Positions 1-56,599 of a stretch of 64,000 nucleotides of DNA are shown here, piece by piece. Both the position numbers and the translations under genes were made by a program. This DNA comes from Sulfuriferula sp. (lineage in GTDB: Bacteria > Pseudomonadota > Gammaproteobacteria > Burkholderiales > Sulfuriferulaceae). The notes under the pieces are model-generated. The model made no database searches, was not told the DNA's origin, and was given only the letters and a program-made list of their open reading frames with translations. Where the stretch lies: NCBI GenBank assembly GCA_041651255.1, contig JBAZJP010000005.1:24405-88404 (forward strand), written 5' to 3'. Position 1 is the first letter of the stretch; each line of letters starts with the position of its first letter.

Positions 1-495
1 GTGGCCGCTGACAAACACAATTGCGTCCTCTACATCATAGACCTCGGCAATAGCCTGTTCCAGTTCGCGATGTATCGGGCGTTCGCCTGACACTGGGCGG
101 CTGGCAGAAACGGATGTGCCATACTGGTCTATCGCCCGTTTGGCCGCATCGGCTACGCGGGCGTCACCTGATAAACCAAGGTAGTTATAACTGGCATAGT
201 TGATATAGTCACGACCGCCAATCTTGGTTGTCGCACCCGCAATACCCTCGTGCAATTTGAAAAATGGATTGTCTATACCCATGCGCGCCGCACCATCATT
301 GATGATGCGCAGTTGTTGATAGCCCGGATGGAGGTGAAAGCGGTAGTGTTGCTCAGGAATATTGTCAGCCTGGGTTGATTTGGTTAACGGCGTATCTGCC
401 TGTTGCTCGACCTGACGCAGCTTGCGCTCGAGTGCCTGCTGTATCAGTTTATCCTTGATCTGTGCGGTGAGTCCGGTGATCCCTTTGCTTGCCAT
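1..495 (-). CDS. wcbT: WcbT/RkpG-like alpha-oxoamine synthase (8-amino-7-oxononanoate synthase / serine palmitoyltransferase family, PLP class II), truncated by window edge
   Basis: Not in the ORF track. Manual translation from ATG at 495, which overlaps the PKS stop (TGATG), gives MASKGITGLTAQIKDKLIQQALERKL...GRDYINYASYNYLGLSGD...IDQYGTSVSASRPVSGERPIHRELEQAIAEVYDVEDAIVFVSGH, open to base 1. The NYLGL and SASR motifs are typical of the family. Confidence 0.9.
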   Translation of the reverse strand, partial: MASKGITGLTAQIKDKLIQQALERKLRQVEQQADTPLTKSTQADNIPEQHYRFHLHPGYQQLRIINDGAARMGIDNPFFKLHEGIAGATTKIGGRDYINYASYNYLGLSGDARVADAAKRAIDQYGTSVSASRPVSGERPIHRELEQAIAEVYDVEDAIVFVSGH

Positions 496-3400
496 CAGCT
501 TATCATCCGTTTGTTGGCAGCGGTTCTATTGGACTGGACATCGTTCATCAGGTTGATAACAGATTCTGCGGTCATTTCCGTGCCATGTTGTGCTGCAACT
601 TGCTCAACCTGCTGTTGTACCGCACTGGTTTCTGCTTTATCGCTGCCTTTTAATTGTGTAATCAGACGTTCAGCTAATTTGGCTATGGTTGGGCTGGTGC
701 TCAACGCCATCACCGACAGGCGAATGCCAAAGCGTGATTCCAGCGCAACGACCAGCTCCACACCCATCAACGAATCCAGACCCATGTCGTAGATAGAACG
801 GTTGGCATCAATCTTATCGGGCGCAACGCGCAGGATCTCGCCAACTTCCTGTTTGAGCATGGCTATGATGGCGATCTGCAATTCATCATCGGTTAGCTCG
901 GCCAGTAAACGCTGCATATCTGCGCCGTTATCTGCATCTGCAGCGCTATCCTGATCTTGTTGTGCCATCTCGCAGAATTTGGCCGAGTTGGCACTAGGCA
1001 AGAAACGCGCAAGGGCTTTCCAGTCCAGTTCCAGTACACCCAGTCCAGAGCGGTTAGCAAGCAACATGCTTTCCAGCGCATCCAGCGCAACCGCGGAGTT
1101 GAGCGCACCGCCACCCATACGACCTTGCAGTGCATCCTTGATATTTTCATTACGTGCGAGGAAGCCTACGTCGTCAATTGCACCCCAACGTACACAGGTT
1201 GCGGCTAATCCAGCAGCTCTGCGGTTTCGGGCGAGCGCTTCCAGCGTGGCATTGGCGGCGACATAGTTGCCTTGCCCAGGATTGCCAAATAACGTGGTTG
1301 CTGACGAGAACAGGATGAAATAATCCAGTGCTAACTCTTTGGTCAACTGATGTAAGTGGAGTGCACCCAGTACCTTGGGTGCGAGTACGCGCTGGATCTG
1401 TGCGGCATCCATATTGCGTATCAGACCATCCGCTATCACCATTGCCGCGTGGACGATGCCTTTAAGCGGTGGCATGGTACTGGCAATGTGTTGTAACAGA
1501 GTGGTCAGCGCATTGATATCTGTGACGTCACAAGCAGTAGCGTAGACTTGCACACCTTGCTTCTTCAGTTGCGTGATACTGCTCAGTGCTTCGGCCGATT
1601 GAGGACCGCTACGACTAATCAATACCAAATGTCGCGCACCTTTGGCAGCCAGCCATTCTGCGGTTTTCAGGCCAAACCCACTGACTCCGCCGGTGACCAG
1701 ATAGGTTGCGGCAGCGTCGAGCTTAAGCTGTGGCTTGATAGGCTTGGCAGTGCAATGTCGTTGATGTACTGGCTGGTGATAAGTGACGACTATCTTGCCG
1801 ATTTGTTTGGCTTGCTGCATGTAACGGAAAGCATCAACGATGTCATTTGCTTCAAATACGGTATAAGGCAGTGGATGCAGTATGCCCTCAGCAAACAGAT
1901 TCATCACTTCAGCAAACAGCTTACGGGTAAGGTCGGGGCGGACTTGCATGAGCTGATCGGCATCGACGCCAAAATAGCTGATATTGTTGCGGAATGGTCG
2001 CAAACCTATTTTGGTATTTTCGTAGAAATCGCGCTTACCCAATTCGATGAATCGACCAAATGGTTTTAATACGCGGAAATTGCGGTTGATGGCTTCGCCT
2101 GCGAGTGAGTTGAGCACCACATCTACGCCCGCACCATTAGTCTGTGCCAGTATCTCATCAGCAAAACCCAGTGAGCGTGAATTGTAGATATGATCAACGC
2201 CAGACAGTCGCAGGAAGTCACGTTTTTCGTCTGATCCTGCTGTGGCGTAAATTTCTGCACCTATCCATTTTGCGATCTGGATAGCTGCTATCCCCACGCC
2301 ACCAGCCGCACCGTGTATCAGTACTTTTTCGCCAGGCTGTAGCTGAGCGAGCTGGTGCAGCGCGTAGTAAACGGTTAAGAAGGTGCTTGGTATGGTAGCC
2401 GCTGCTGCAAATGAGATGCCCGCCGGGATCAGCGCAATGGCGCTGGACTGGGTAATTACCCGGTTGCTGAAGCTGGACGGGCCAAAGCCAACGACACGGT
2501 CGCCCACAGCGTAACCGCTGGTTTGTGAGCCCACATTGATCACGATACCGGCGAATTCCAGTCCCAGCGTTGGACCCGCAAAACCTTCTTCTATGGCTTC
2601 GTCAGAGAGCATGCCCAGTGCGTACATGACGTCTCTGAAATTCAGACCAGTGGCATGGACTTCGACTTCGATTTCGTGCGCAGCGGGAAGTACACGAGGA
2701 TGTGCTTCCCAGCGTAAATTACGCAGCTGTCCAGGTGTCTGGAAAGCCAGGCGCAAGGTAGGTGCGGTGAGTGGCGCTGCTGTAGCTGCAACTGGGCGTG
2801 GTTCAAGTCGCAGACGTGGCGCGTAACGTGCCCCATGAGCGCTGAGTATTACTTCCGTTTCGTTATCTGCTAGTGTGAGTTCCTTACTCAGTGCGTTGGT
2901 GACAACCTCCAGTGCATCTGGGGCATGCAGATCAATCATGCGCACCTTGTAATTAGACTCCTCATTCATCAGGGTACGGCCAAATCCCCATAGTGCTGCA
3001 TCTGGCAGCGAAGCAGTAGAGGAATCAGTATGTTCATATTCAGATAGCAAGTCTGTGCTCACATTGGCAGTCACTAGCCAGCAAGTGGTACCGATCTGGG
3101 TAGATTCACACGCCTGGATAATGGCTGCAGCACTGGCACAACGGTCAACTTGCTGATTCAACAGTGCTGCCGGTGAGTCATTTTCGGTCAGTGTGTTAAG
3201 CCCGGCTAAGTGAATGATACCGTCGAGCTGTCCCGTGGTATCAAGCAGCAAAGATGCAATGTATGCACTATCCCCGGGCTGGGCGATGCTGACATGGTCG
3301 CCATGAGCTGTCAGTTTTTCCGTCAGTAAGCTGGCTAGTCGTGCTGAATAGCCAGTCTTATCTGCCAGTACCAGCCAGTTATGCGCTAAGGCAGGTGGCG

Positions 3401-6400
3401 TGGCTGCGATTTTTTTAGCAGCAGTTTGCGCTATCAGCAAATACGGGCCAGCATGTGCATCTGGTATTAAATCCAGATGTTCGGCATTGATAAAGTCCAG
3501 TGTTTGCAACTGTTGCTGCCAGAATTGCGCAGAATGTTGTGCAGAATGCCAGGTTGTATCCGTTGTTGTAACTTTGTCTTGGCAACCAAACACAAAATCC
3601 ATCCAGCGTGATGGGTGTTGACCTATCAATAACAGGCTGCCGCCCTCGACGAGTTGCGAATTCGCGTACCTGAGCGCGCGCATGGCTTCCTCAGGTGTGC
3701 TGAAATCAAGTTGCACGATGGCCAGTTGGCAAAATGCAGGTGAGGTAGTGGCAGTACCGATCAGACTAGTATTGAAGCGGGGATAGTGCTCTTGTAATGA
3801 CGCAACCTCTTCCAGTGCTGCTTCAGACGTGCTGGCAAACGTATAATTGCTGCGGTTGAAATCAAGTTGTGCACAAATATCCGTGGCAAACAGTGGCGTA
3901 CCTGCGCTGATTTCCAGCACGCCCAGACGCTGACCCGCAGGCAATAGCTTTAAGCTGTAACTAATCCAGTCGCGTACATTGGTCGTGAGTTGCTGTTTGC
4001 CCAGCTCGCCCAGTGCCAGACGGGTTAATGCCGCAAGTGAGGATGCGTCAGAGGCCAGTTTCGCGGGACTCATGGCGCCAGTGAGTAAGGCTGGCAAGTG
4101 CAATCCTATACGCCCGACGCTGTGAATAATCTGGAAGTAATCAGGGTAATCTGCCACCAGGCTATTCCATATATCTATGGGCAATATGCTGTCAGCCTGG
4201 CTGGCTGGAATTTCCCAGCCATGTTTGTTAGCGGTGATGGCGAGGTCTTGCTCAGCCATCGTCAACAAATGAGTGAAATAGGGCGCGGCTTGCGGTGCGG
4301 ACTTTTGGTATGCTGCCACCGCTTTGGTGGTGAGCTCTCCTGACTTATTCGCCAGTTGTTGCAATGCCTGCACAGTAAAGCCGCTGCATAAGCTGTCGAG
4401 TAGTGGCTCGACTTCAAAGGCATAACGATCAAATATCTGCTGTTGTGCGCATTGTTGTACCACGCCTGTCAGCGCGGTACGTATTTCAGCAAAGCTGACG
4501 CTGGCAACGGGCGTTGTAAGCGGATGAGGTGCAGGTGTCGCGTGAAAATCAAGGAAGCGCAGATGATCTGCAGCGTGTTTGTGTAAGCGCACACTGCGGA
4601 AGCGGGCTTGCTTGATAACGGCAATGGCCATGCCGTTTTTATCAAAAACCGTGAATTCAGCTGTCAGTGAATGTGGTGAGCGGTTTAATAACGTCACTTG
4701 TGCAAAATGAGGCGCAGCACCTGTTCGACGGAAAGCGATACGTCCCATTTTAACGGGAACAAATGCAATACCGTCATACATCGCCAAATCATCTTTCAGC
4801 AGCTGAATAATCAGCTGGAAAGTACAGTCCAATATAGCGGGATGGAGGTGTGTCTGGGCTAAATCAGGTGCAGATGATGTCGGGGTGAAAAATACTGCCA
4901 ATGCAGTTGTGCCATTGACCCAACCATGATCAATACGTTGAAACTCAGCACCATAATCCAGGCCAGCTGCGCGGGTCAGTGCGTTATGGCTGGTATGATC
5001 GAAATCAGGCTGGCGGGCTGGGAGCGTCGGTGCGATCCGTGCCAGTAAAATATCGCCAGGTTCACTAAGTATCCGTGCTACGGCATGAGTCGTCCACGGC
5101 TCTGTGCCGGCCTGATCGCGCCCAGTGATACTGACACTGCCGTCTTGTGCGGCAATGCTCACGCGTACGGTTTTGGCGTGCTCACTGCTTAAGATCAGCG
5201 GTGAACGGATTTCCAGCTCTTCTATTTCAGCTAATTCGGAGGGCTTCCACGCAAGTGCTGCTGCCAGCACCAGTTCTGCAAATCCAGTGCCGGGAAACAC
5301 CGCCGCTTCACCGACTACGTGATCTGCCAAACTAGGTAGAATAAGTGTGTCGAGTTGGTTTTCCCAGGTAAGTTCATGTTGTTGCAGCGCATAACCCAAT
5401 AGCGGATGAACCTTGTGCCGTGTCAACAAGCCCATCGATGCGGCGGACACTGGATGCCAGTGCCGCTCACGTTGCCATGGGTAATTAGGTAAGCTGATGA
5501 ATTTGCCGGGTACAGGGAACAGGCTAGCCCAATCTATGCACGCACCCGCAACGATTGCCGAATTAACTGCGGCCCAGACGAGATCTGCGGCATCGTCCTG
5601 ACGGGTTAACGTGGTAATCACACATCCTTCAATATTGCCATCTTTCAGTGCGTCATTGAGGTAACCACGCATTACTGCATGTGGGCCGACTTCGATAAAA
5701 ATATTTGTTCCTGTGGCCATTATTTGCTTGCTGGCGTGTTCAAACAGCACCGGTTTGCGTATGTTGTGCCACCAGTATTCAGCATCAAGTTCGCGCCCAT
5801 CCAGCAAATCGCCCGTTACCGTTGAGTAAAAAGGTATCGTTGAGGTGGCGGGCTGAATGTTGTTCAGCGTTTGCTTAATGTTGGACTCTATCGCATCCAT
5901 GGCGGGACTGTGGAATGCATAATCCAGCGCCAGACGCTTAAAGGGGATGTGGCGAGCTGATAAAGCCGATTCGAGCTGGGTAAGTTGATCCGCATCACCT
6001 GCGACAGTGATGCCGCGAGAGCTGTTGATGCCAGCTACTGCCAACGTGCTTCCTATGGCTGCTAATAACGTTTGCGCATCAGCAATTCCGCAGCCTACCG
6101 CAGTCATCTGACCCTTGCCCTTGGTTGTGCCTTGGGCATGGCTGCGGTGATAGATAACGGCTACGGCATCAGCTAACGATAATCCGCCGCACGCCCAGGC
6201 CGCCGCCACTTCACCTACGCTGTGACCGGCCACAGCAATAGGTGTAATGCCACGCTGTGCCAGCATGCGGGTAATGCCGACCTGTATTGCGAATAAGGCG
6301 GGTTGTGCAATTTCAGTTAGTTCATAGCGGTCGTCACCGTGTTTGCCAGCTAATTCATCTTCCAGCGAAAAATCCGCATGCAGGCGGAATAGCGCGTCGA

Positions 6401-8081
6401 TTTCACGGATAGTCGTACGGAATATGGCAGACTCTTGCAGTAGTTGTTTACCCATGCCCGCCCACTGCGAACCATTGCCTGAATAGATGAAAGCTGGGCC
6501 AGCAGGTTGGGCTAATGCGCTACCGCTTTGCACTTCATTTTTGTTAGCTTCGTCATTGGCAAACGCAAGTAAAGATTTGGCAATGGCCGCGGGTGTCGTA
6601 CCCGATAAAACAACGCGATGGCTGTGAGCCTCGCGGTTAAAAATCGTGTTGTAACTGATGTCGTAAAGTGCAGTCTTGGACTGTGAATTCAGGAATACAG
6701 CAAATTCACTCGCAGCCTGTTTGAGTCCGGCATTGTCCTTTGCCGAGAGCATGATGGGCAGATCGGTAGTTTTTGATGAGGCGGGTACTATAGTTTTGGG
6801 AGCTTCGTAACTTTCCAGTATGACGTGTGCGTTAGCGCCGCCAAAGCCGAACGAGTTGATACCAACGATAATCTTGCCTGATTTTTTTAATGGGCGATTC
6901 TTAGTGACAACTTTAACATTCAAATCGTCAAAATCAATGTTGGGATTGAGCGTATTCACGCCAATTGTTGCAGGTACCATGCGATGCTGGATGCAATGCA
7001 ATGCCTTGGCTAGACCGGCAATACCAGAAGCGGCTTCCATGTGCCCAAGATTACTTTTAATTGAACCTATCAGTAGCGGATTATTCTTGGCACGCCGCTT
7101 ACCCAATGCTTCGCCTATTGCCCGTGTTTCTATTGGGTCACCGACGGCTGTGCCGGTGCCGTGTGCTTCAAGATAATCAATCGTCGTTGGGTCGATACCG
7201 GCTTTTGCATACGTGTGCGTGAGCAGCTCAGCCTGTATTTGCGCGCTGGGCACGGTCAGGCCGGATTTTCGACCATCAGTGTTGACTGCCGTGCTGGCGA
7301 CTACCGCAAGGATTCGATCGCCGTCAGCAACCGCCTGATCATAATCCTTAAGCAGGAACACCCCGCCGCCCTCAGAGCGTACATAGCCATCACCGGCTGC
7401 GTCAAATACCTGACAGCGCCCGCGCCTGGAAAGCATGGACGCTTTGGAAAACGTAATAAAACCATAGGGATGCAAATGCAGGCTCACGCCACCTGCGAGT
7501 GCCTGTGTGCTTTCGCCTGAAAGTATGGACTGACATGCCTGATGAAACGCCACCATGGACGATGAGCAGGCAGTATCTATTGCCATGCTCGGGCCACGCA
7601 GATCCAGTACATAGGAAATACGGTTGGCAGCGATGCTGCTGGTATTGCCGGTAGCCGTTGTTGAATCGACAGTATTCAGGTCGTCAGCCAGGCGATAAGC
7701 ATAATCGTTGCTGGCGATACCGATATACACGCCACACTGGCTACCGCGTATTGACGATGGTTTCACACCTGCGTTTTCCAGTGCTTCCCAGCTCATTTCC
7801 AGCAGCAGGCGTTGCTGCGGATCCATCAATGCGGCTTCGCGTGGGGAAATTCCAAAAAAACCCGCATCAAACTGTGATACGTCGCCAACCGAACCTGCAG
7901 CAAAAGTATAGCTGGTGCCAGGATGGTTTTTATCCGGGTGACGATAAGTATCCAGCGCCCAGCGCTCTGCATCGACTTCAGTCACCAAATCACGCCCAGC
8001 CAACAAATCATCCCAGTAGTGAGCGCTGTCGGTACTGGGGAAACGAAAGGCCATTCCTGTAATTGCTACTTTTTTTGCCAT
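495..8081 (-). CDS. wcbR: Type I polyketide synthase WcbR/RkpA-like (KS-AT-DH-pseudoMT-ER-KR-ACP, no thioesterase)
   Basis: KS DTACSSS, HGTGT, GSIKSNLGH; AT GHSVG and YAFH; DH HVVGEAAVFPG; degenerate MT LEISAGT; ER IHGAAGGVG; KR TGGVSGFG and GQGNYVAAN; ACP GLDSLM. Capsule-locus context. Confidence 0.92.
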   Translation of the reverse strand: MAKKVAITGMAFRFPSTDSAHYWDDLLAGRDLVTEVDAERWALDTYRHPDKNHPGTSYTFAAGSVGDVSQFDAGFFGISPREAALMDPQQRLLLEMSWEALENAGVKPSSIRGSQCGVYIGIASNDYAYRLADDLNTVDSTTATGNTSSIAANRISYVLDLRGPSMAIDTACSSSMVAFHQACQSILSGESTQALAGGVSLHLHPYGFITFSKASMLSRRGRCQVFDAAGDGYVRSEGGGVFLLKDYDQAVADGDRILAVVASTAVNTDGRKSGLTVPSAQIQAELLTHTYAKAGIDPTTIDYLEAHGTGTAVGDPIETRAIGEALGKRRAKNNPLLIGSIKSNLGHMEAASGIAGLAKALHCIQHRMVPATIGVNTLNPNIDFDDLNVKVVTKNRPLKKSGKIIVGINSFGFGGANAHVILESYEAPKTIVPASSKTTDLPIMLSAKDNAGLKQAASEFAVFLNSQSKTALYDISYNTIFNREAHSHRVVLSGTTPAAIAKSLLAFANDEANKNEVQSGSALAQPAGPAFIYSGNGSQWAGMGKQLLQESAIFRTTIREIDALFRLHADFSLEDELAGKHGDDRYELTEIAQPALFAIQVGITRMLAQRGITPIAVAGHSVGEVAAAWACGGLSLADAVAVIYHRSHAQGTTKGKGQMTAVGCGIADAQTLLAAIGSTLAVAGINSSRGITVAGDADQLTQLESALSARHIPFKRLALDYAFHSPAMDAIESNIKQTLNNIQPATSTIPFYSTVTGDLLDGRELDAEYWWHNIRKPVLFEHASKQIMATGTNIFIEVGPHAVMRGYLNDALKDGNIEGCVITTLTRQDDAADLVWAAVNSAIVAGACIDWASLFPVPGKFISLPNYPWQRERHWHPVSAASMGLLTRHKVHPLLGYALQQHELTWENQLDTLILPSLADHVVGEAAVFPGTGFAELVLAAALAWKPSELAEIEELEIRSPLILSSEHAKTVRVSIAAQDGSVSITGRDQAGTEPWTTHAVARILSEPGDILLARIAPTLPARQPDFDHTSHNALTRAAGLDYGAEFQRIDHGWVNGTTALAVFFTPTSSAPDLAQTHLHPAILDCTFQLIIQLLKDDLAMYDGIAFVPVKMGRIAFRRTGAAPHFAQVTLLNRSPHSLTAEFTVFDKNGMAIAVIKQARFRSVRLHKHAADHLRFLDFHATPAPHPLTTPVASVSFAEIRTALTGVVQQCAQQQIFDRYAFEVEPLLDSLCSGFTVQALQQLANKSGELTTKAVAAYQKSAPQAAPYFTHLLTMAEQDLAITANKHGWEIPASQADSILPIDIWNSLVADYPDYFQIIHSVGRIGLHLPALLTGAMSPAKLASDASSLAALTRLALGELGKQQLTTNVRDWISYSLKLLPAGQRLGVLEISAGTPLFATDICAQLDFNRSNYTFASTSEAALEEVASLQEHYPRFNTSLIGTATTSPAFCQLAIVQLDFSTPEEAMRALRYANSQLVEGGSLLLIGQHPSRWMDFVFGCQDKVTTTDTTWHSAQHSAQFWQQQLQTLDFINAEHLDLIPDAHAGPYLLIAQTAAKKIAATPPALAHNWLVLADKTGYSARLASLLTEKLTAHGDHVSIAQPGDSAYIASLLLDTTGQLDGIIHLAGLNTLTENDSPAALLNQQVDRCASAAAIIQACESTQIGTTCWLVTANVSTDLLSEYEHTDSSTASLPDAALWGFGRTLMNEESNYKVRMIDLHAPDALEVVTNALSKELTLADNETEVILSAHGARYAPRLRLEPRPVAATAAPLTAPTLRLAFQTPGQLRNLRWEAHPRVLPAAHEIEVEVHATGLNFRDVMYALGMLSDEAIEEGFAGPTLGLEFAGIVINVGSQTSGYAVGDRVVGFGPSSFSNRVITQSSAIALIPAGISFAAAATIPSTFLTVYYALHQLAQLQPGEKVLIHGAAGGVGIAAIQIAKWIGAEIYATAGSDEKRDFLRLSGVDHIYNSRSLGFADEILAQTNGAGVDVVLNSLAGEAINRNFRVLKPFGRFIELGKRDFYENTKIGLRPFRNNISYFGVDADQLMQVRPDLTRKLFAEVMNLFAEGILHPLPYTVFEANDIVDAFRYMQQAKQIGKIVVTYHQPVHQRHCTAKPIKPQLKLDAAATYLVTGGVSGFGLKTAEWLAAKGARHLVLISRSGPQSAEALSSITQLKKQGVQVYATACDVTDINALTTLLQHIASTMPPLKGIVHAAMVIADGLIRNMDAAQIQRVLAPKVLGALHLHQLTKELALDYFILFSSATTLFGNPGQGNYVAANATLEALARNRRAAGLAATCVRWGAIDDVGFLARNENIKDALQGRMGGGALNSAVALDALESMLLANRSGLGVLELDWKALARFLPSANSAKFCEMAQQDQDSAADADNGADMQRLLAELTDDELQIAIIAMLKQEVGEILRVAPDKIDANRSIYDMGLDSLMGVELVVALESRFGIRLSVMALSTSPTIAKLAERLITQLKGSDKAETSAVQQQVEQVAAQHGTEMTAESVINLMNDVQSNRTAANKRMIS

Positions 8082-11359: not shown

Positions 11360-12550
11360 TCAGAATTTAATCGTACCCACATTCACAATCGGATAAACCA
11401 CTGAAACCACAATATTCAGGAATTTCTGCAAGTCAGCACTTGGTGCGTTGGATACATACAGCACATCTTTATTATCAATCGGGAAACTTTGCGCAATAAA
11501 GAAGCTGGCAGGGTCTTTGAGATTTAGCTGATAAACCACAGGGACTTTGCCATCAGGTGTGGTTTTAGGTGTGGTTTTCCAGTTTAGCGCGTTGCTATCT
11601 TCCAAACGGAAAATAAACACTGCGCGTGCATCTGAGCGAGTATCTTGTAACCCCCCGGCTCGCGCCAATGCCTGAGCCAGCGAGATACCTTGTGCTTCAA
11701 AATTGATTTCTTCGTTTTTACCCGTCGCGCCTAACACCGTAAAACTTAATGGTTGGAACAGTGCCGTCACTACATCACCAGGTTGTAAAACAATATTTTG
11801 TTTTGGGTCGCGAATAATGGTATCCAGAGGTAAGGCTTGGACTTTATAACCGCGTGTGACTTGTAACGTCATTTTATTTACTGATTGGCGCACCCCACCA
11901 GCAGCAGCCAGCGCATCGAGCAAACGCTCACCACGGGCAGTGAGCGGCATGCGTGTGCTCGAACCTACTTCACCTACCACGGTGACATTGGCTGTGTTAT
12001 TGCGGATTATGCGTACCAGAACTTGTGGTTGATTTGCCTTGCTTTTTAGTCGTTGCGCAATTTCAGCTTCAATTTGTTGTGGGGTTTTATTTGCAGATGC
12101 AATCTGTCCCGCAAAGGGGATGTTAATTGTGCCCTGGCTGCTCACCATTTGCTCAGGGAAAGTTGTTACTCGCGTCGTTGCAGGTCCCATGCGCGGGTCT
12201 ATGGTTGTGCCACCGAAGAGTAATGCAGGTGGCGCCTCCCAAATAGACACCTCGATCACATCGCCTGCACCAATCACATAACCTTGTTTTGCTGAACTAG
12301 AAAATGCTTCTGAAAATAGCGCCTTTTTTTGATCAGTGAGCAATTTTCGGGCAACTGTGTCATCTATATCAACGACTTGTATACCCTCAATGCGCTGACT
12401 GTCGCCGCTTTCTAAAACTTGTTGGCGGCTAGGGCCTGACGAAGCCAACCAGTCAGGATAAGTAGCACAGCCGCTTAGGGCAGAGCTGATGAGCAGTGAG
12501 GTGAATAATGTTCGAGCGTAGGGGAAGCTAAATGCGGGAGTCGGTTTCAA
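11360..12550 (-). CDS. wcbC: Outer-membrane polysaccharide export lipoprotein (WcbC/Wza/BexD family)
   Basis: Lipobox LSGC, YVIGAGDVIEVSIWEAPP, IPFAGQI, SLBB repeats (LLDALAAAGG, LAQALARAGGL), D-LYVSNAP C-terminus. TTG start. Confidence 0.9.
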   Translation of the reverse strand: MKPTPAFSFPYARTLFTSLLISSALSGCATYPDWLASSGPSRQQVLESGDSQRIEGIQVVDIDDTVARKLLTDQKKALFSEAFSSSAKQGYVIGAGDVIEVSIWEAPPALLFGGTTIDPRMGPATTRVTTFPEQMVSSQGTINIPFAGQIASANKTPQQIEAEIAQRLKSKANQPQVLVRIIRNNTANVTVVGEVGSSTRMPLTARGERLLDALAAAGGVRQSVNKMTLQVTRGYKVQALPLDTIIRDPKQNIVLQPGDVVTALFQPLSFTVLGATGKNEEINFEAQGISLAQALARAGGLQDTRSDARAVFIFRLEDSNALNWKTTPKTTPDGKVPVVYQLNLKDPASFFIAQSFPIDNKDVLYVSNAPSADLQKFLNIVVSVVYPIVNVGTIKF

Positions 12551-29397: not shown

Positions 29398-30185
29398 TCG
29401 GGTATGACCGTTCTGGATATGATACGAACTTGCGAAAGCCCCAGCAAGGTAAGGCATAAATTGATAATCGCCATGTAACTCATGTCGTAATGCGCGTGGA
29501 CCATAGACCCGAAATAGCCTTCGCGCAGTATCTCGACACCATGCACCATAGGCAACAATAGGACGAATTTTTGCCCTGTGGTGGGTAGCCAGTCAACCAT
29601 GAATGCGGCACCAGATAGTGGAAATAAGAGATATGAGGCAGGGTGCCAGAGTTTCTCAATAATTTCGCTGCGCTCACTTAAAGCGCCTATCCACAATGCA
29701 AGTGCCGAGCCAAACCAGGCTAGCATGAACCAGCCAAACATGATTTTGAGTATATCTTCGGGTGGTTTAATCCAGCCTATCGAGGTGAAGACTATCCCTA
29801 ACATAATAAATGAAGCGGTAGTGCCAGCAATTTCAAGGATTAGTCGAGAAGCAAAAATGTCGATCACTTTGACATGACGGTGATACATCAAGGCCAGGTT
29901 AGGTTCAATGGCCTTGCTGCAGCGGTTAGGCATGTTGCGCCATAGTAAAACAGATGAGTAACCGGTGAGCGCAAATGCGGCAATAGGGATGTTGGTAAAG
30001 TGATGTCCGCCAGCCATAGTCCACAGCACGGTGACACCCAAGGTAAAGAGCATGGGTTCAACGAATAGCCATAAAAAACCAATATTATGACGACCATAGC
30101 GGGTGATGACTTCGCGCATCAATAGCGCGCCAATGACGCGGAATTGTATTTGTAAGGATCGGCGCAAGCTGGGTGTTGTATTCAT
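29394..30185 (-). CDS. wzm: Capsule ABC transporter permease KpsM/Wzm
   Basis: [26 protein letters not shown], multiple TM segments, P-x-VHG-x-E-x2-R. Confidence 0.93.
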
Positions 30186-42253: not shown

Positions 42254-43405
42254 ATGAAAATCTTAATAGATGTTACTCGTTTGGTGAGTCGTTTTATGGA
42301 CGGGCGTTTGCCAACTGGGGTAGATAGAGTCGGGCTGGCGTATGTGCGGCATTATGGTGTGCGAGCGCAGGCAGTGGTGCGTTGGGCGGGGCGGCTGTGG
42401 GTGTTGCCACGTGTGCAATCAGCGGCGTTGTTTGCCTGGTTGGCGAATCCTGTTGACTCACGTGGTGCGGTGTGGATTATTACGCGTGGCATTATGGCGG
42501 GTGGCTGGCTACAGGATGTGGCAGGGAGTATTTTGCTGAATACCGGGCACACGGGTTTGCATGAGAGTGCGTATGTGACCATGCTGTGTAAATTGGGTGT
42601 GCACCCTGTGTTTTTGGTGCATGATCTGATCCCGATTACTCACCCGGAATATTGCCGCGCGGGTGAGGATGAGAAGCATCGGCGGCGTATGCAGCATGTG
42701 CTGACCTTGGGGTGCGGTGTGGTGGCGATTTCGCAAGCTACATTGAATGATTTGAGTCAGTTTGCCGCGCAGTTACAGTTACCTATGCCGCCTGCAGTGG
42801 TCGGGTTGTTAGCACCTGGTCCTGCTCATTGTGTGGCAAGTACGCGCCCAGTGGCCGAACCATATTTTGTAGTATTGAGCACCATAGAACCACGTAAAAA
42901 TCATGTGCTGTTATTACAGGTGTGGCGGCGTCTGGTTGAGCAATATGGCGAACACGCGCCGCGCTTGGTGGTGATAGGGCAGCGTGGTTGGGAGTGTGAG
43001 AATGTGGTGGATTTGCTGGAGCGCTGTGCTGTGCTTAAGGGGGTTGTGATTGAGCTGGCAGATTGCTCGGATGCAGTATTGGTGAATTATTTGCATCATG
43101 CTCAGGCCCTGTTGTTTCCTTCTTTTGTTGAGGGTTATGGTATGCCGCTGGTTGAGGCGTTGGCGTTGGGTCTGCCGGTGATTGCCAGTGATTTGGAAGT
43201 GTTTCATGAGATTGCTGCGGATATTCCTGAATATATTGATCCGCTGGATGGGCTGCGCTGGGCGGAACGGGTGATGGATTACGCACAGCCGAATAGCGAA
43301 TCACGCGCAGCGCAGTTGCAGCGTATATCGCATTTCAAGACGCCAGCTTGGGCGGATCATTTTGCCAAGGTTGATGCTCTGTTAGAGGTTGTCGGAAATG
43401 CCTAA
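42254..43405 (+). CDS. wcbB: GT4 glycosyltransferase, WcbB-like
   Basis: IDVTRL..PTGVDRV, HDLIP-x-THPEY, TIEPRKNH, EGYGMPLVEA. Directly upstream of the kpsC-like gene, as in wcb loci. Confidence 0.8.
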   Translation: MKILIDVTRLVSRFMDGRLPTGVDRVGLAYVRHYGVRAQAVVRWAGRLWVLPRVQSAALFAWLANPVDSRGAVWIITRGIMAGGWLQDVAGSILLNTGHTGLHESAYVTMLCKLGVHPVFLVHDLIPITHPEYCRAGEDEKHRRRMQHVLTLGCGVVAISQATLNDLSQFAAQLQLPMPPAVVGLLAPGPAHCVASTRPVAEPYFVVLSTIEPRKNHVLLLQVWRRLVEQYGEHAPRLVVIGQRGWECENVVDLLERCAVLKGVVIELADCSDAVLVNYLHHAQALLFPSFVEGYGMPLVEALALGLPVIASDLEVFHEIAADIPEYIDPLDGLRWAERVMDYAQPNSESRAAQLQRISHFKTPAWADHFAKVDALLEVVGNA

Positions 43406-44459
43406 GCAAAAAGATTTAACTATGCAGCATATTATTAATGCTGAAGTGCTGGGAATTTATCAGTTTCCCTACTGGAAACATCCTGTGGTGAAGCAGTGTT
43501 TCCCTGCATTTCGGGTGGTATTTATTGAATCCATAGATAAATTGCCGGTGGGTGCGATCCTGGTGTTGTGGGGGATGCGTCCTGTACCAGAGGGCGTGAC
43601 TAAAGATGTGCAGGTTTGGCGAATGGAAGATGGCTTTCTGCGCTCCGTAGGTTTGGGTGCGGATTTGATACGCCCGATGTCGTGGATAGTCGATCAGCAA
43701 GGTATTTACTATGATGCGACGCGGGTATCGGATTTGGAACAGCTATTGGCGCAGACACAGTTTGATGAGGCTCTGCTAGCCAGAGCTGCTGATTTGCGCG
43801 CACGCGTAGTAGCGACTGGGCTGACAAAATATAATGTAGGTGCAGGAAAATGGCAGCGACTTGCGAATGCGGCACGAGTGATCCTGGTGCCCGGGCAGGT
43901 GGAGAGTGACGCATCGTTGGCGTTTGGCGCGCCTGGTGAGCGCACCAATATAGGATTGTTGCAGGCAGTACGGTCTGCGCATCCCGATGCGTATGTGGTG
44001 TATAAGCCACACCCCGATGTTTATGCGCGATTGCGTGCTGAGGGTCAGAATGAGCAGAGTGCCTATCGCTGGTGCGATGAGGTGGTGACCGATGTGGCTA
44101 TGGGGGATTTGCTCACCATGGTTGATGAAGTGCATGTGATTACGTCTTTGGCAGGCTTTGAGGCGCTGTTGCGTGGTAAACCCGTGACTTGCTACGGCCA
44201 GCCATTCTATGCTGGCTGGGGTTTGACGCAGGATGTGATGCCGATAGCTCGGCGTAGTCGACGTTTGAGTTTAGACGAGTTAGTGGCGGCAGTGTTGATT
44301 TTGTATCCGCTGTATTTGAGCCGTGATGGTAAGCATTTGATTACGCCAGAACAGGCATTAAATGAGCTATCTGTTTGGCTGGCACATACCGGTGGTCGTG
44401 TAACCATATGGCGTAAGTTTATCAGGATGTTTCTGCGGCAGATTATTGGCGTGCGTTAA
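43398..44459 (+). CDS. kpsC: KpsC/WcbA-family beta-Kdo transferase, single-domain (about half length)
   Basis: EDGFLRSVGLGA, GIYYDAT, PGQVESDAS, YKPHPDV, SLAGFEALLRG, PFYAGWGLT-x-D. Start ATG 43398 with AGAGG RBS. Confidence 0.85.
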   Translation: MPKQKDLTMQHIINAEVLGIYQFPYWKHPVVKQCFPAFRVVFIESIDKLPVGAILVLWGMRPVPEGVTKDVQVWRMEDGFLRSVGLGADLIRPMSWIVDQQGIYYDATRVSDLEQLLAQTQFDEALLARAADLRARVVATGLTKYNVGAGKWQRLANAARVILVPGQVESDASLAFGAPGERTNIGLLQAVRSAHPDAYVVYKPHPDVYARLRAEGQNEQSAYRWCDEVVTDVAMGDLLTMVDEVHVITSLAGFEALLRGKPVTCYGQPFYAGWGLTQDVMPIARRSRRLSLDELVAAVLILYPLYLSRDGKHLITPEQALNELSVWLAHTGGRVTIWRKFIRMFLRQIIGVR

Positions 44460-51155: not shown

Positions 51156-51158
51156 GGA

Positions 51159-52280
51159 TTATTCCTTAAAAATAGACTTGTTGTTAATCTCGGGTGTTTG
51201 ATTTAGTAACGGATAGAAAAAACCAACAAACGGATTGACCAGGCGTGACGGCGCTTTCAGCGCCAATTTTAACGGTGACATATAAGCCCCCAGATCTTTT
51301 TTGATGGGGTAAGTGGTCAGCCCGAGTTCTAGCCGAGTGGCTCCCAGGTTAATGGCGGTCTCGACAACCTTGTGTGCGACGTAGATGTAGAGGCTGTCGT
51401 TCACTGCATCCGTGCGTCCGAAATACAACCAGCGTAGCAGTGTGCCATCCATTAACAATAATGCATGGCCGATGAGTTCGTCCTGGCGGTAGAACAGGAT
51501 GACTTTGGAGCGCGCACCGAGTTCGGCTGAAAATCCTCGATAGAATTCAGGAGTGAGGACTTCGCGTTGATATTCGCTGGCGTGGTTGTGTACCACTAGC
51601 CATTGGTTACATAGTGTGTCCGCGAGATGATCGAAATCGTCGTGCAGTTCATGGCGTATGCCTTGTTTTTCGTTGATGCGTAAGTGCTTGAGTAATTTGC
51701 TGCGGTAGTAGCTTTTCATCGCCGCAAGGTAAGCAGCAGGTGTTTTCCAGACTATTTCCATGTAGGTAGTCGGCAGGCTATCCACTACATGGTAGCCCAG
51801 CTGTGTGAATAGTGGCTGTACGGTTGCGGTTTCTGCTTCAAAGTCACGGACAACGATGAGGAAATGGTTTTGTTGTTTGGCGAGACTCATCAACATATCG
51901 TTGAGCGCAGTGACCATGTCAATATCGCTGATGTGGTTGCCGGCAACAAATGGCTTGTTTAAGGTAATTGGCGTGCCGCATTCCAGCATTTTGAGCTGGA
52001 AAAATCCGGGGAAGAATTTGCGGATTTTGGCGATAGTGGTTTTGAGTCCACCTGTTGCGAAAATAGCAATGTCTGTGGTGATAGTGTAAAAACTGGTGAA
52101 TGCGAGCGGTATGCCGTTATCATCATAGAATATGGCATAGCGATAGCGGAAATCATTGAGCTTTGCGCGTTCGAGGATAGCCCAGAATTCATAAGCGTAC
52201 GTCGATGAATGACCCTTTTGCAGTGAGTCCCAGTGATCTTTCGGCACTTCGTCTATATTGTTGTATATTATTGTTTTCAT
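51159..52280 (-). CDS. Double-GNAT (FemAB-like) N-acyltransferase family protein
   Basis: 373 aa; Y-x2-AMKS-x-YR-x2-L, LRWLYFG, LY-x-Y-x6-VE-x-AI, LELGLTTY-x2-K-x2-LGA pattern typical of FemAB-like/GNAT folds. Confidence 0.65.
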   Translation of the reverse strand: MKTIIYNNIDEVPKDHWDSLQKGHSSTYAYEFWAILERAKLNDFRYRYAIFYDDNGIPLAFTSFYTITTDIAIFATGGLKTTIAKIRKFFPGFFQLKMLECGTPITLNKPFVAGNHISDIDMVTALNDMLMSLAKQQNHFLIVVRDFEAETATVQPLFTQLGYHVVDSLPTTYMEIVWKTPAAYLAAMKSYYRSKLLKHLRINEKQGIRHELHDDFDHLADTLCNQWLVVHNHASEYQREVLTPEFYRGFSAELGARSKVILFYRQDELIGHALLLMDGTLLRWLYFGRTDAVNDSLYIYVAHKVVETAINLGATRLELGLTTYPIKKDLGAYMSPLKLALKAPSRLVNPFVGFFYPLLNQTPEINNKSIFKE

Positions 52281-52377
52281 ATTTGCGTGTGCATTGGTCT
52301 CGGGTTGCGCGCAGTATTGTCGAGCCTGGGTAGTTAGGTTAATTTTTCAAGTCGATTTTCGGTCATTAAAGGCATAG

Positions 52378-53391
52378 ATGCAAGTCACCACGAATAATTT
52401 AGTGCTGGTCACTGGAGCGACAGGATTTATCGGTAGCCGATTAGCGCAGCGTCTGCTCGATGATGGCTATGCGGTGAGAGTGTTGGTGCGCGATCCGCAG
52501 AGATTGTCTGCATTGCTGCGTGAACAATGTGAAGTCGTCGTTGGCGATGTGCTTGACGAGGCAGTAATGGCGAGTGCGGTCAGGCAAGTGCAACTGATAT
52601 TCCATTGTGCGGCAAACGTGAAAACATGGGATACGTATGCGGCTTATTTCGCGGTGAATGTTCAGGGTGTGCAGAATCTGATGCAGGCGATAGCGCAGGT
52701 AAATCCGGATCTGTCGCGTTTGGTACACATCTCTACGGTTGACGTGTATGGCTTCCCCGATGCGCCGTGTGACGAGACTTGTGTTGCCACGGGTGGTGAG
52801 TTCGATTATGGCAAAACCAAGCTGATGGGTGAGAATCTGGTGCGCTCACTGGGCGATGCGGCAAATATTTCTTACACGATTATCCGGCCCTGCAATGTCA
52901 TCGGGCCGGGCAGTCAGTTCATAGAACGCATAGGTGCAGAGTTAAAGTCTGGGGTTATGTTGACCATAGCCGGCGGACACACTCATGCCGGGCTGGTTTA
53001 TATTGATAATCTGGTTGATGATGTGGTGTGGGCTGCAACTGCGCCTAATGCACACCGGGAATGCTACAACGTGCGTGATGATAACGAAGTCGATTGGGCT
53101 GAATTTTTGCGGGTATTTCGTCAGTGTATCGGGGGCAAGGGCTTAGTGATCAATTTGCCCTTTGCGGTTGCGGATAAATTGGCATGGGCTTTTGCAATAG
53201 TGCATAAAACATTGTTACCGCGCCATGAGCCACTGTTACACCGCTTGCTGGTGCGGTTTTTTGGTAAAACCTGTGGGCATAGCCCGGCAAAAATTCGCAC
53301 GCATCGAGCCGGTGCATCTGCCGTGCAGAGGATAGATTTTGACGAGGCAATGCGGCGGTCGTGTCAGTGGTTTAAGGGTGAAAATGACTAA
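52378..53391 (+). CDS. NAD-dependent epimerase/dehydratase (extended SDR, 3-beta-HSD-like)
   Basis: VTGATGFIG, FHCAA, HISTVDVYG, YGKTK (YxxxK), IRP-x-NV-x-GPG. Confidence 0.88.
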   Translation: MQVTTNNLVLVTGATGFIGSRLAQRLLDDGYAVRVLVRDPQRLSALLREQCEVVVGDVLDEAVMASAVRQVQLIFHCAANVKTWDTYAAYFAVNVQGVQNLMQAIAQVNPDLSRLVHISTVDVYGFPDAPCDETCVATGGEFDYGKTKLMGENLVRSLGDAANISYTIIRPCNVIGPGSQFIERIGAELKSGVMLTIAGGHTHAGLVYIDNLVDDVVWAATAPNAHRECYNVRDDNEVDWAEFLRVFRQCIGGKGLVINLPFAVADKLAWAFAIVHKTLLPRHEPLLHRLLVRFFGKTCGHSPAKIRTHRAGASAVQRIDFDEAMRRSCQWFKGEND

Positions 53392-54604
53392 TTCGCATGT
53401 GGTGTTTTTACAAGGCTTGCCATCACCGTTTTTCAGTCGTGTCGCACGTGGATTAGCTGAATCGGGTTGTCGGGTAACAGGGATTAACTTGTGTGTAGGA
53501 GACCAGTTATTCTGGCGTGGTCCGAATACGCTGAATTACCGCGGTCGCCTGGCTGATTGGCCGCAGTTTATCGCTGATTTCTACGATAAAAATGGCGTGA
53601 CTGATATTGTTCTGTTAGGCGAGCAACGCAGTTACCACCAGCATGCAATCAAGCTGGCACAAGCACGTGGCATACGCGTGACGGTGACCGATTTTGGCTA
53701 CTTGCGCCCTGACTGGATGGCGTTTGAACGGGATGGTATGGGCGGCGATTCGCATTTCCCCAAAGATCCGCAAGCCATATTGGCGCTGGCTGCCCAGGCG
53801 CCCAAGGCAGCGCTCACACAGCGCTATACAGATAGCTTCTGGACTATGGCATGGGGCGACATGCTTTATCATTTTGCCAATTTCTTTTATTTCTGGTTAT
53901 TTCCTTATTATCGTCGTCCCTACAAACGTAACCACCCGTTAGTGCATTATTTCTCTATCGGCAAGCGATTGCTGTTTGCTAAACGTGGGCATCAACATGC
54001 GACCCGCAGATTAGCCGAATTAAAAGCTGATGGTGCGCGTTATTTCATGTTCCCGTTGCAGTTGGAAAACGATTTTCAAATTGTGTCCTATTCCCCATTT
54101 GACCGTCTGGAAGATGCGATATGGCTGGTGTTACAGTCCTTTGCCAAGCATGCCAGCGCGGAGACTCGTTTGCTGGTCAAAGTGCATCCACTGGATCCCG
54201 GCTTGAAGAATTGGAAAAAAATGATTTGCCGCTGGACAAGTGAACTGGGCATAGCTGAACGTATTGATTATTTTGATGGCGGCAATTTAGATGACATTAT
54301 CAGCGCGTCACAGGGCGTGGTGACAGTTAACAGTACCGTGGGTATTCGCGCGCTACAACTGGGTAGCCCGGTCATTACGCTAGGCGATGCGATTTATGAT
54401 GTAGATGGGCTGGCTTTTCAGGACGGTATTGATCGCTTCTGGATTGAGGCTAAAAAACCAGATCCGGTATTGGTTGACGCATTTATCGATGCGGTCTGTC
54501 ATAGCATACAAATACGTGGTACTTTTTATAGTGAGCCTGGCTTGAGTGCGGCGGTTGATGCTGCCGTGATCCGGCTATCCACGGGGACGAGCGGCTTAGC
54601 CTGA
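53384..54604 (+). CDS. kpsS: KpsS/WcbO/RkpJ capsule priming beta-Kdo transferase
   Basis: FLQG-x-PSPFF, GYLRPDW, PLQLENDFQ, K-x-HP-x-D, TVNSTVG. Preferred start ATG 53384, overlapping the SDR stop. Confidence 0.88.
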   Translation: MTNSHVVFLQGLPSPFFSRVARGLAESGCRVTGINLCVGDQLFWRGPNTLNYRGRLADWPQFIADFYDKNGVTDIVLLGEQRSYHQHAIKLAQARGIRVTVTDFGYLRPDWMAFERDGMGGDSHFPKDPQAILALAAQAPKAALTQRYTDSFWTMAWGDMLYHFANFFYFWLFPYYRRPYKRNHPLVHYFSIGKRLLFAKRGHQHATRRLAELKADGARYFMFPLQLENDFQIVSYSPFDRLEDAIWLVLQSFAKHASAETRLLVKVHPLDPGLKNWKKMICRWTSELGIAERIDYFDGGNLDDIISASQGVVTVNSTVGIRALQLGSPVITLGDAIYDVDGLAFQDGIDRFWIEAKKPDPVLVDAFIDAVCHSIQIRGTFYSEPGLSAAVDAAVIRLSTGTSGLA

Positions 54605-54611
54605 TGTTTGG

Positions 54612-55106
54612 TTATTCAGCCTCGGTCAGCGGCAGCGATAGCGTTTCCTTGACTTCTTCCATTACGATATAACTTCTTGATTCCTGCGCGCCTGGCAGAG
54701 TGAGCAGGATGTCGCCCAGCAGGGTTCGATAATCGGCCATTTTGGGTATACGTGCTTTGATCAGGTAATCGAAATCCCCCGATACCAGGTGACATTCGAG
54801 CACACTCGGCAGTTTGATAATCTCTTTCTTGAATTTTTCGAAAATACCGCCTGATTTGGCGGAAAGCTTGATTTCTACGAATACCAGTAGCGACAATTCC
54901 AAAGCATGCGGGTCAAGACGGGCGTGGTAGCCGAGGATGACACGTTCCTTTTCCAGACGTTTGACCCGTTCACCGCACGGGGTGACCGACAGCCCGACTT
55001 GTTCAGCCAGGTCGGTGATGGAGATGCGGGCATCTTGCTGGAGTATGGACAAAATTTTGCGGTCGATTTTGTCCAGTTCACGGATGGCGTGGGTCCGTAT
55101 TCTCAT
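54612..55106 (-). CDS. lrp: Leucine-responsive regulatory protein (Lrp/AsnC family)
   Basis: LDKIDRKIL..LQQDARIS..VGLS-x-TPC-x-ERVKRLE, ECHLVSGDFDYL-x-KAR. Divergent from dadA. Confidence 0.92.
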   Translation of the reverse strand: MRIRTHAIRELDKIDRKILSILQQDARISITDLAEQVGLSVTPCGERVKRLEKERVILGYHARLDPHALELSLLVFVEIKLSAKSGGIFEKFKKEIIKLPSVLECHLVSGDFDYLIKARIPKMADYRTLLGDILLTLPGAQESRSYIVMEEVKETLSLPLTEAE

Positions 55107-55294
55107 GTGTTTTTGTCCTTAATTTTCCTGATCATGCCGCGATATTATTATTTTTAGATGGTTGTTAATGTTTAATCTAAAAATAGAGTAATTTATACTA
55201 CATAAATGGCTATTTAAAGGCAATTATTTGCTACCCAGAAGCTAGAATTTGATTATTCGCTGTGTTGATCAAGTTGATGTTCTGGGAGTATGAG

Positions 55295-56599
55295 ATGCGA
55301 GTCGTTGTGCTTGGAAGTGGTGTCGTTGGTATCACCAGTGCCTATTATCTGGCGCGAGCTGGTTTTGACGTGACTGTGGTGGATCGCCAGCCCGGTCCGG
55401 GGATGGAAACCAGTTTTGCCAATGCAGGTCAGGTTTCGCCTGGTTATTCTGCGCCCTGGGCTGCACCCGGAATTCCATTGAAAGCCGCAAAATGGCTGTT
55501 CCAACGTCATGCGCCGCTGTCAGTTCGCCCGGATGGCACGCTTTGGCAATTGCAATGGGTAGGTCAGATGCTACGTAATTGCACGACTGAGCGTTATGCG
55601 ATCAATAAGTCGCGTATGGTGCGTTTGGCAGAATACAGCCGAGATTGTCTGCGGCAGTTGCGTGCTGAAACTGGCATCACCTACGAACATCGCACCCAGG
55701 GCACGCTGCAGGTATTTCGTACCCAGCAGCAGCTGGATGCGGCGGGCAAGGATATTGCCGTACTTGCCGAATGTGGCGTGCCCTATGAGTTGCTTGATCG
55801 GAATGGGTGTGCAGGGGTCGAACCTGCGCTGAATCTGGTCAAGGAAAAATTGGTGGGTGGCCTGCGTTTACCGGGTGATGAGACTGGGGATTGCCAGCTG
55901 TTTACTCGTTTGCTCGCGGAAGAAGCTAAAAAACTGGGTGTGGTGTTCCACTATAATTTGCCTGTGGACCGGCTGCTCAGCGCTAACGGCCGCATTACGG
56001 GTGTTGAAGCCAGCGGGGAGCGCATCATGGGCGATCATTTCGTGGTCGCCATGGGGAGTTATTCGCGCCCCATGTTACATGCGCTGGGGCTGGATATCCC
56101 GGTGTACCCAGTCAAAGGCTATTCGCTGACAGTACCGATTACCAATGCGGCTGCGTCACCGGTTTCTACCATCATGGATGAAACTTACAAGGTGGCGATT
56201 ACCCGTTTTGATGACCGCATCCGCCTGGGGGGTATGGCCGAGCTGGCGGGCTTCGATCTGACGCTCAATCCACGTCGCCGTGCAACGCTGGAAATGGTGG
56301 CAGGGGATCTGTTCCCGCAGGGGGGCGATATCCCCGCCGCAACTTTCTGGACGGGTTTGCGTCCGATGACACCCGATGGCACGCCTATTATCGGCGCTAC
56401 CCGTTACGAAAATCTGTGGCTCAATACTGGTCATGGCACGCTGGGTTGGACCATGTCTTGTGGCTCGGCGCAGGTATTGGCTGATTTGATGGCTGGACGC
56501 GTTCCAGCGATTGCGGCAGATGATCTGGGTTTATCTCGCTACGATGGCGGACGCATAGCTCATGCCAAGGTTGCGATGGGCAGCCAGTTGGCAAGTTGA
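55295..56599 (+). CDS. dadA: D-amino acid dehydrogenase
   Basis: [21 protein letters not shown]-x-[32 protein letters not shown]. Preferred start ATG 55295. Confidence 0.95.

Follow-up and report, generated by a model that had tools for sequence, protein, structure and literature searches.

A FemAB-like tandem GNAT and an extended SDR beside kpsS as candidate tailoring genes of a capsule lipid primer in Sulfuriferula

What do a GNAT-fold transferase and a short-chain dehydrogenase/reductase (SDR) contribute to a capsule locus in which they stand directly beside kpsS, at the end opposite a polyketide synthase (PKS) and an oxoamine synthase? We addressed this question in a 64,000-nucleotide stretch of DNA from Sulfuriferula sp. 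(GenBank assembly GCA_041651255.1, contig JBAZJP010000005.1, positions 24,405 to 88,404 of the forward strand), hereafter the window, which belongs to a genome of 2.9 Mb with 49% GC. The original prediction held that these genes may build a ceramide-like lipid on which KpsS primes the capsule. In our assessment, there is about an even chance that the GNAT, the SDR and KpsS carry out the tailoring and priming steps of a capsule lipid-primer module like those of rkp-1, wcb and sga, giving a ceramide-like acceptor for KpsS, and a ceramide-like capsule anchor is plausible.

The GNAT gene (51159..52280, minus strand; FemAB-like tandem or dupli-GNAT transferase of 373 aa, P0001) was divergent from the gene for the extended SDR (52378..53391, plus strand; 337 aa, P0002), and the two were separated by an intergenic region of 97 bp (52281..52377); the open reading frame coordinates confirmed this predicted layout. 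The kpsS reading frame was mechanically listed from a TTG at 53339, and homologues aligned from residue 1 of the form that begins with the ATG at 53384. Judging from this alignment, we take ATG 53384 as the true start of kpsS (53384..54604, plus strand; 406 aa) and the gene as translationally coupled to the SDR. The predicted overlap held as well; the SDR stop codon (53389-53391) overlaps the kpsS start, and the ATG lies within ATGACTAA. A promoter and terminator scan of 50900-55300, including the sigma-70 consensus in the 97-bp gap between the GNAT and the SDR, yielded nothing above shuffled expectation. KpsS matched PF05159 (Capsule_synth) with 249 bits, covering 2-310 of 310 positions, and NF050054 with 236 bits, against an equivalog cut-off of 600 bits. 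These scores indicate a probable member of the family (the GT99 family of transferases for beta-3-deoxy-D-manno-oct-2-ulosonic acid, Kdo) rather than an equivalog of the E. coli type.

At the opposite end, a PKS and an oxoamine synthase were found within positions 1-8081, as predicted, from the domain architecture and from membership of the BioF/Kbl/SPT family (SPT, serine palmitoyltransferase). The PKS is an iterative type I enzyme of the WcbR/RkpA/SgaA type (495..8081, minus strand; 2528 aa; Pfam domains KS-AT-DH-ER-KR-ACP) and shares 40-64% identity with the PKSs that accompany the same alpha-oxoamine synthase (AONS) in 12 other genomes. The AONS is of the WcbT/RkpG/SgaB type; its 5' part (1..495, minus strand; the first 165 residues) lies in the window, and the full gene extends beyond it (G000:C5:23556-24899; 447 aa, with the pyridoxal phosphate lysine in TLSK297). 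A fully reducing PKS beside an oxoamine synthase, within a Kps locus with KpsS, is a hallmark of the rkp-1/wcb/sga module, and it is what we found here. As in rkp-1 (Sinorhizobium rkpA, G, H, I and J), wcbO-T (Burkholderia pseudomallei group) and sgaABC, the PKS adjoins the oxoamine synthase and is accompanied by a reductase; as in rkp-1 and wcbO-T, the pair is embedded in a capsule locus of the ABC-transporter (Kps) type that includes a KpsS homologue. Unlike these systems, the window variant is without a WcbP/SgaC-like SDR or a WcbQ/RkpI-like transferase and instead combines an SDR of the extended class with a tandem GNAT of the FemAB-like type and an acyltransferase of the E2/CAT-like type. 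From its gene content, we assign the locus to a second, uncharacterised but conserved variant of the rkp-1/wcb/sga module.

Rhizobial rkp-1 and wcb-type lipid genes have been tied genetically to capsule production since the 1990s (for rkp-1, see Kiss 1997, cited in PMC3908369). That the rkp-1 and wcb genes make a capsule lipid is a long-standing proposal in print (PMC3908369, PMC11766843). The original prediction treated the product of wcbR/wcbT and rkpA/rkpG as unresolved, which is outdated: the homologous pair SgaA (PKS) and SgaB of Pseudomonas fluorescens MYb115 makes sphinganines of C24-C28, along with species that are heavier by 154 Da and were read as phosphoglycerol-sphinganines (Peters et al. 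2025, PMC12134224). SgaB is serine-specific and has SPT activity, the SDR SgaC was proposed as the reductase, and homologous clusters occur mostly in Burkholderia (PMC12134224). We infer the equivalence of the window PKS and AONS with SgaAB and WcbRT from their architecture and from this reported distribution. Capsule, KpsS and N-acylation are nowhere mentioned in that paper (PMC12134224), and our full-text literature search for KpsS together with sphingolipid returned nothing relevant.

The order KpsS-SDR with the divergent GNAT was kept in 10 of the 12 informative GNAT loci (the window, L001, L003, L004, L005, L006, L009/L010, L029, L050 and L051). The GNAT's opposite flank directly adjoined an E2-like-AONS-PKS block in L004 and L006, which come from two metagenome-assembled genomes (MAGs), and elsewhere single-domain KpsC (KpsC-half), GT4 or KpsD genes; in Undibacterium G398, the AONS lay on the GNAT's contig about 36 kb away, in a layout like that of the window. 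The GNAT/SDR/KpsS arrangement recurs in unrelated contigs and is not due to chance. The glycan genes around the block differ between loci; therefore, the GNAT and the SDR are part of a conserved core and not of a serotype-specific section, and they did not group with serotype sugar genes.

A phylogenetic profile was drawn from a sample of 251 genomes of the order. GNAT orthologues were present in two of these genomes and SDR orthologues in the same two, and the 13 genomes with a WcbT-type AONS included both, so that the two genes co-occurred with each other and with the AONS (2/2 in 251 genomes), as the original prediction had anticipated. Three of five further GNAT-bearing species genomes also had the AONS, at 79-82% identity. 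In total, five of seven GNAT-bearing genomes, counting that of the window and G241, contained a WcbT-type AONS; the two exceptions were MAGs, one of them of only 1.6 Mb. Synteny, co-inheritance, the gene fusions described below and the position of the SDR in a slot otherwise held by a KDSR-type enzyme together bear out the central expectation that the GNAT and the SDR partner KpsS and the PKS/oxoamine synthase in the lipid-primer part of the locus.

The genes beside KpsS fell into two sets. In G294, G361, G305, G199 and G359, KpsS was followed by an SDR of the classical (adh_short) class, about 255 aa long, and G294, G361, G305, G331, G075 and G359 encoded an LtaS-like protein of the sulfatase family with a length of about 500-580 aa. 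This KpsS-SDR-LtaS-like order corresponds to the published order wcbO-P-Q (PMC11766843). Neither the classical WcbP/SgaC-type SDR nor the LtaS-like WcbQ/RkpI-type gene was found in the window, in any locus of the GNAT type or in the genome of the window. The two variants are therefore mutually exclusive, a classical SDR with an LtaS-like protein in one and an extended SDR with a dupli-GNAT in the other. In both, a reductase is coupled to KpsS, drawn from two different SDR classes, and the third gene encodes an LtaS-like transferase in one and a dupli-GNAT in the other. An identification of the GNAT with WcbQ was ruled out, because the WcbQ-type genes beside KpsS are the LtaS-like sulfatase-family proteins. 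KpsS itself was 55-77% identical within the GNAT variant, compared with 34-39% to KpsS of the classical variant. In G341, the gene beside KpsS encodes a fusion of a WcbP-like classical SDR with an LpxC-type deacetylase domain (L043:11366-13198); the KpsS of this genome is 55% identical to that of the window, and the genome has the PKS-AONS pair and no GNAT.

These loci also bear on whether the lipid is a capsule anchor at all. The PKS/AONS product tailored by the SDR and the GNAT might instead be a free outer-membrane sphingolipid, co-located and co-regulated with the capsule, with KpsS using phosphatidylglycerol (PG). In MYb115, the products were found in free form, as sphinganines and PG-sphinganines, and the authors treated them as secondary metabolites (PMC12134224), which fits this idea, as do Kps exporters without KpsS at some PKS-AONS loci (G221, G315, G075 and G299). 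However, the SDR stop overlaps the kpsS start, the reductase lies directly beside KpsS in both variants, the PKS-AONS pairs lie among kps export genes in nearly all loci compared, and the rkp-1 genetics tie these genes to the capsule. On balance, we consider a free lipid unlikely. In G221 and G315 (L036 and L038), KpsD/M/T/E directly followed the PKS-AONS pair, and no KpsS was found genome-wide at E <= 1e-20, a minimal form of the locus.

Next to the conserved linkage, fusions connect the GNAT with the oxoamine synthase. A profile search with the GNAT family against 1.84 billion representatives gave 291 relatives at E <= 1e-30, and 12 of the best 150 carried an AONS domain in the same protein, either before the GNAT (AONS-GNAT) or after it (GNAT-AONS). 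The GNAT domains of such fusions, which the original prediction had named for comparison, are related to the window GNAT at 25-31% identity and E values down to 1e-57. In G218, a GNAT-AONS fusion of 798 aa has a GNAT part 31% identical to P0001 (E 1e-35) and is followed by an AMP-binding ligase. Outside its orthologues, P0001 has its nearest relative, over its full length, in the GNAT part of the BioF2-like fusions (Acetyltransf_6 plus Aminotran_1_2); unlike in these fusions, transferase and synthase are separate genes in the window, about 50 kb apart at opposite ends of the capsule locus. We know of no established function for BioF2-like GNAT-oxoamine synthase fusions. We regard the fusions as the strongest single argument that the GNAT may act on, or together with, the product of the oxoamine synthase. 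Several GNAT relatives (the P0275, P0278, P0305 and P0266 group) carry a PilZ (c-di-GMP-binding) domain, either C-terminal or in the order PilZ-AONS-GNAT, and others in the group are fused to a histidine kinase or an NTP-transferase domain.

The next question is what kind of transferase the GNAT is. P0001 exceeded the Pfam cut-offs of FemAB_like (PF04339; 35.4 bits, cut-off 27) and Acetyltransf_6 (PF13480; 27.9 bits, cut-off 22), and a canonical paralogue in the same genome scored 515.8 bits; on these scores, P0001 is a divergent member of PF04339. Relatives at E <= 0.001 numbered 473, the best 120 of which were 54-97% identical; they occurred in Burkholderiales, Methylococcales, Thiobacillaceae and alphaproteobacterial MAGs, with the closest in Sulfuriferula, Nitrosomonadales and Undibacterium, and 84 residues were invariant among the orthologues. 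An AlphaFold2 (AF2) model built from an alignment of 37 orthologues had a pLDDT of 90.5 and consisted of two GNAT halves. A sequence search of the PDB with the GNAT gave no match, and NCBIfam contained no model matching the GNAT or the family of the bacterial ceramide synthase (bCerS).

The original prediction had looked for the counterpart of the GNAT in the bCerS of Caulobacter. In gene classes, the resemblance is real: like Caulobacter with Spt, bCerS (CC_1154) and CerR (CC_1164), the window combines an oxoamine synthase, a transferase of the tandem GNAT fold and an extended SDR from the neighbourhood of HpnA and OleD. Unlike in Caulobacter, the acyl chain would come from a PKS instead of the AcpR/AasR system, and the genome of the window lacks a canonical Spt and has a single further AONS paralogue; therefore, it offers no other amino-lipid pathway for the GNAT and the SDR. 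E. coli yghO is the orthologue of CC_1154 (PMC9386255). We compared an alignment of the window GNAT family (A1) with an alignment of the bCerS family (A2), which was composed of Spt-linked GNATs of 378-383 aa from one Dongia-like and one sphingomonad genome, picked by their synteny with AasR-CerR-AcpR-Spt and LptF2/G2, plus homologues. The YghO protein of E. coli K-12 matched A2 in hhalign with a probability of 100% (E 3.8e-95), whereas the probability was 0.5% for YghO against A1 and 0.1% for A1 against A2, and BLASTP found no significant pair between the window GNAT and bCerS proteins. The AF2 models of both families have the tandem GNAT fold, and their structural neighbours differ: the bCerS-family model was nearest to the acyl-CoA tandem GNATs 2wpw/5kf1/7q3a (5e-15) and also to MshD, with FemX at 4e-9. 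A relationship between the GNAT and bCerS, as originally proposed, was thus not detectable (hhalign probability 0.1-0.5%). Canonical PF04339 proteins were dropped as candidates for the bCerS family once YghO had been identified as the CC_1154 orthologue, and the canonical paralogue in the genome of the window (C9:19352-20482) was ruled out as bCerS or as a member of the pathway, as it has no lipid-gene context and does not belong to the YghO family. In the sphingomonad G140, a canonical PF04339 (DUF482-type) gene (L025:5007-6161) lies 3.5 kb from Spt, where the related G044 has a YghO-type bCerS; no YghO-type gene was seen in G140 within the 39 kb examined.

The structural neighbours of the GNAT raise another reading, in which it is an aminoacyl-tRNA-dependent enzyme like Fem and MprF and aminoacylates the sphingoid amine, the head group or a linker, while the SDR reduces the base, resulting in an aminoacylated single-chain anchor. 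The best PDB match of the GNAT model in Foldseek was FemX (E 1e-13), with the aminoacyl-PG synthase domain aaPGS/MprF at E 1e-10, and the top 20 matches were all aminoacyl-tRNA-dependent dupli-GNATs (FemX, FemA, Sbb17/Sba18 and aaPGS/MprF; E 1e-13 to 3e-10, TM-scores 0.5-0.65), while the bCerS-family model best matches acyl-CoA tandem GNATs instead. The Pfam class is FemAB_like, and one GNAT relative weakly matches LPG_synthase_C. The aaPGS enzymes act on a membrane lipid. FemX/FemAB and aaPGS (the C-terminal part of MprF) are thus the nearest structures at TM 0.5-0.65; they are, however, only 10-14% identical to the window GNAT and stand in a different genomic context, and fold class does not fix the donor. 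The fused GNAT-AONS of G218 precedes a fatty-acid-type AMP-binding ligase, and no member of PF04339 or PF13480 is known to us to use tRNA. We give aminoacyl transfer a low probability.

For the SDR, we looked for a counterpart among the CerR proteins. P0002 matched Epimerase (PF01370) with 134.8 bits and 3Beta_HSD with 79 bits, and its motifs were intact (GATGFIG at residue 13 for GxxGxxG, S119/T120 and Y144xxxK148). The best NCBIfam neighbours were HpnA (108.6 bits) and OleD (100.3 bits), which are also the top two for Spt-adjacent CerR proteins, and a sequence search of the PDB gave 3wj7, a putative oxidoreductase, as the best match. Identity to CerR proteins was 26-31% (28%, E 4e-23 to CerR of G012). 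The SDR and CerR were reciprocal best matches in two of five Spt genomes, G012 and G044, with narrow margins (69 versus 44 bits and 46.6 versus 45.9 bits, respectively). In a maximum-likelihood tree of extended SDRs, the deep nodes were unsupported and the relationship between the SDR and CerR was not placed. The homology to CerR that the original prediction proposed is therefore reduced to that of a distant neighbour at best. We propose that the SDR is the 3-keto reductase of a sphingoid-type base, mainly because of its position: the slot coupled to KpsS is held in the other variant by a KDSR-like enzyme of the SgaC/WcbP type.

A sugar role for the pair has to be weighed against this assignment. 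The substrate of the GNAT and the SDR might be a nucleotide sugar or the capsule glycan, e.g., for 4-keto reduction and amino-sugar N-acylation, and the pair would then have no part in lipid synthesis. Consistent with this, the SDR is a member of the NAD-dependent epimerase/dehydratase superfamily, with scores against the LegB, GalE and RmlB models, the window is rich in sugar-modifying genes (DegT, PglD-like and Gmd among them), and the GNAT stands beside the KpsC-half and GT4 genes in several loci. However, the pair is kept beside KpsS where the glycan genes differ completely, and L004 and L006 have it next to the PKS-AONS. Oxoamine synthase fusions are seen in twelve GNAT relatives, and the best curated neighbours of the SDR are lipid keto-reductases rather than sugar enzymes. 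A role confined to sugars is thus very improbable.

Single-domain KpsC-like and GT4 genes accompany the GNAT in many loci. In the window, they are represented by a conserved GT4 glycosyltransferase (42254..43405, plus strand; assigned by Pfam and orthologues) and a KpsC-like (Capsule_synth) protein (43389..44459, plus strand; 356 aa; PF05159, 134 bits). The single-domain KpsC adjoins the GNAT in L002, L003, L007, L029, L049 and L050, and GT4 orthologues lie beside the GNAT or the KpsC-half in L002, L003, L007, L029 and L050. Wherever it occurred, the single-domain KpsC-like gene had a GT4 partner (window 42254-44459), and the two are fused into a protein of 725 aa in a metagenomic relative (L051:4284-6461). 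This pairing points to a linker synthase made of two enzymes, in contrast to the KpsC of E. coli with its two domains.

Returning to the ceramide-like acceptor, we infer the following chemistry. The iterative PKS would build a very long acyl chain on its own acyl carrier protein (ACP), and the WcbT/SgaB-type synthase, by analogy with SgaAB, would condense this chain with an amino acid to give a 3-keto long-chain base. The FemAB-like tandem GNAT would then acylate the free amine, for which fatty acyl-CoA or acyl-ACP and aminoacyl-tRNA are the candidate donors, and the extended SDR would reduce the 3-keto group. The resulting ceramide-like lipid, either directly or after a head-group step or GT4 glycosylation, would be the putative acceptor for KpsS, the single-domain KpsC and GT4. 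For Caulobacter, the proposed order is N-acylation first and reduction second (PMC11087976), and a transferase that is clustered or fused with the synthase agrees with it. In the most specific form of this model, the capsule anchor would be a PKS-derived very-long-chain sphingoid base that is N-acylated, the GNAT would be a third independently evolved ceramide synthase, and the KpsS acceptor would have switched from a phosphoglycerol lipid to a ceramide or its glycoside; this full combination is conceivable, though we consider it doubtful. The other two ceramide synthases are the eukaryotic CerS and the bacterial bCerS of the YghO type, and E. coli KpsS primes on ordinary PG.

Several observations weigh against a ceramide-like acceptor. 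The co-occurrence counts are small, phylogenetically non-independent and drawn from a clustered sample; the genome of the window and G241 belong to the same genus. The GNAT of L007 and L049 is found with the KpsC-half and not with SDR-KpsS, which would suit a glycan-linker role for the GNAT equally well. For the GNAT model, acyl-CoA tandem GNATs scored below FemX and aaPGS/MprF in Foldseek; as its nearest structures are aminoacyl-tRNA-dependent transferases, fatty N-acyl transfer is not the default reading. No head-group (phosphoglycerol) transferase is visible in the GNAT variant. Only non-acylated sphinganines have been reported from P. fluorescens MYb115 (PMC12134224). Finally, an E2/CAT-like acyltransferase of the 2-oxoacid-dehydrogenase type (281 aa, HDIIDG motif) could be the N-acylating enzyme instead of the GNAT. 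The gene for this protein comes next after the oxoamine synthase (G000:C5:22708-23553, left of the window) and is also present at L004:6661-7470, L006:11875-12720 and L030:8546-9343. It also occurs in G294, which is without the GNAT; therefore, it is a second, independent candidate for the acylation step.

The remainder of the window, between the PKS end and the GNAT/SDR/kpsS end, is spanned by a large capsule locus of the ABC-transporter type, which contains KpsD, KpsT/M/E-like genes, the single-domain KpsC-like and GT4 pair, many glycosyltransferases and sugar-nucleotide genes. The outer-membrane polysaccharide export protein of the KpsD type (11360..12550, minus strand) has Poly_export and SLBB domains. 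The ABC capsule exporter genes kpsT (28735-29457) and kpsM (29394-30185), both on the minus strand, were recognized by ABC_tran and ABC2_membrane, respectively, and a KpsE-like gene (30198-31349, minus strand) by orthology to genes beside KpsM/T in L003, L034 and L037. In the glycan part, three proteins (26817-27476, 38236-41103 and 48192-51155) combine DUF4214 modules with glycosyltransferase or methyltransferase domains. The right border is marked by a regulator of the Lrp family (54612..55106, minus strand; NF008370, 208 bits), followed by dadA and dadX.

The two mutually exclusive tailoring sets beside KpsS provide a clean comparative handle on the capsule lipid of the rkp-1/wcb kind. For the Burkholderia-type variant, the comparison predicts PG-sphinganine, a mimic of lyso-PG, as the acceptor of KpsS. 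If the ceramide-like acceptor is true, it would be a new capsule anchor chemistry and would give a first function to a widespread family of tandem GNATs, including the fusions of the BioF2 type.

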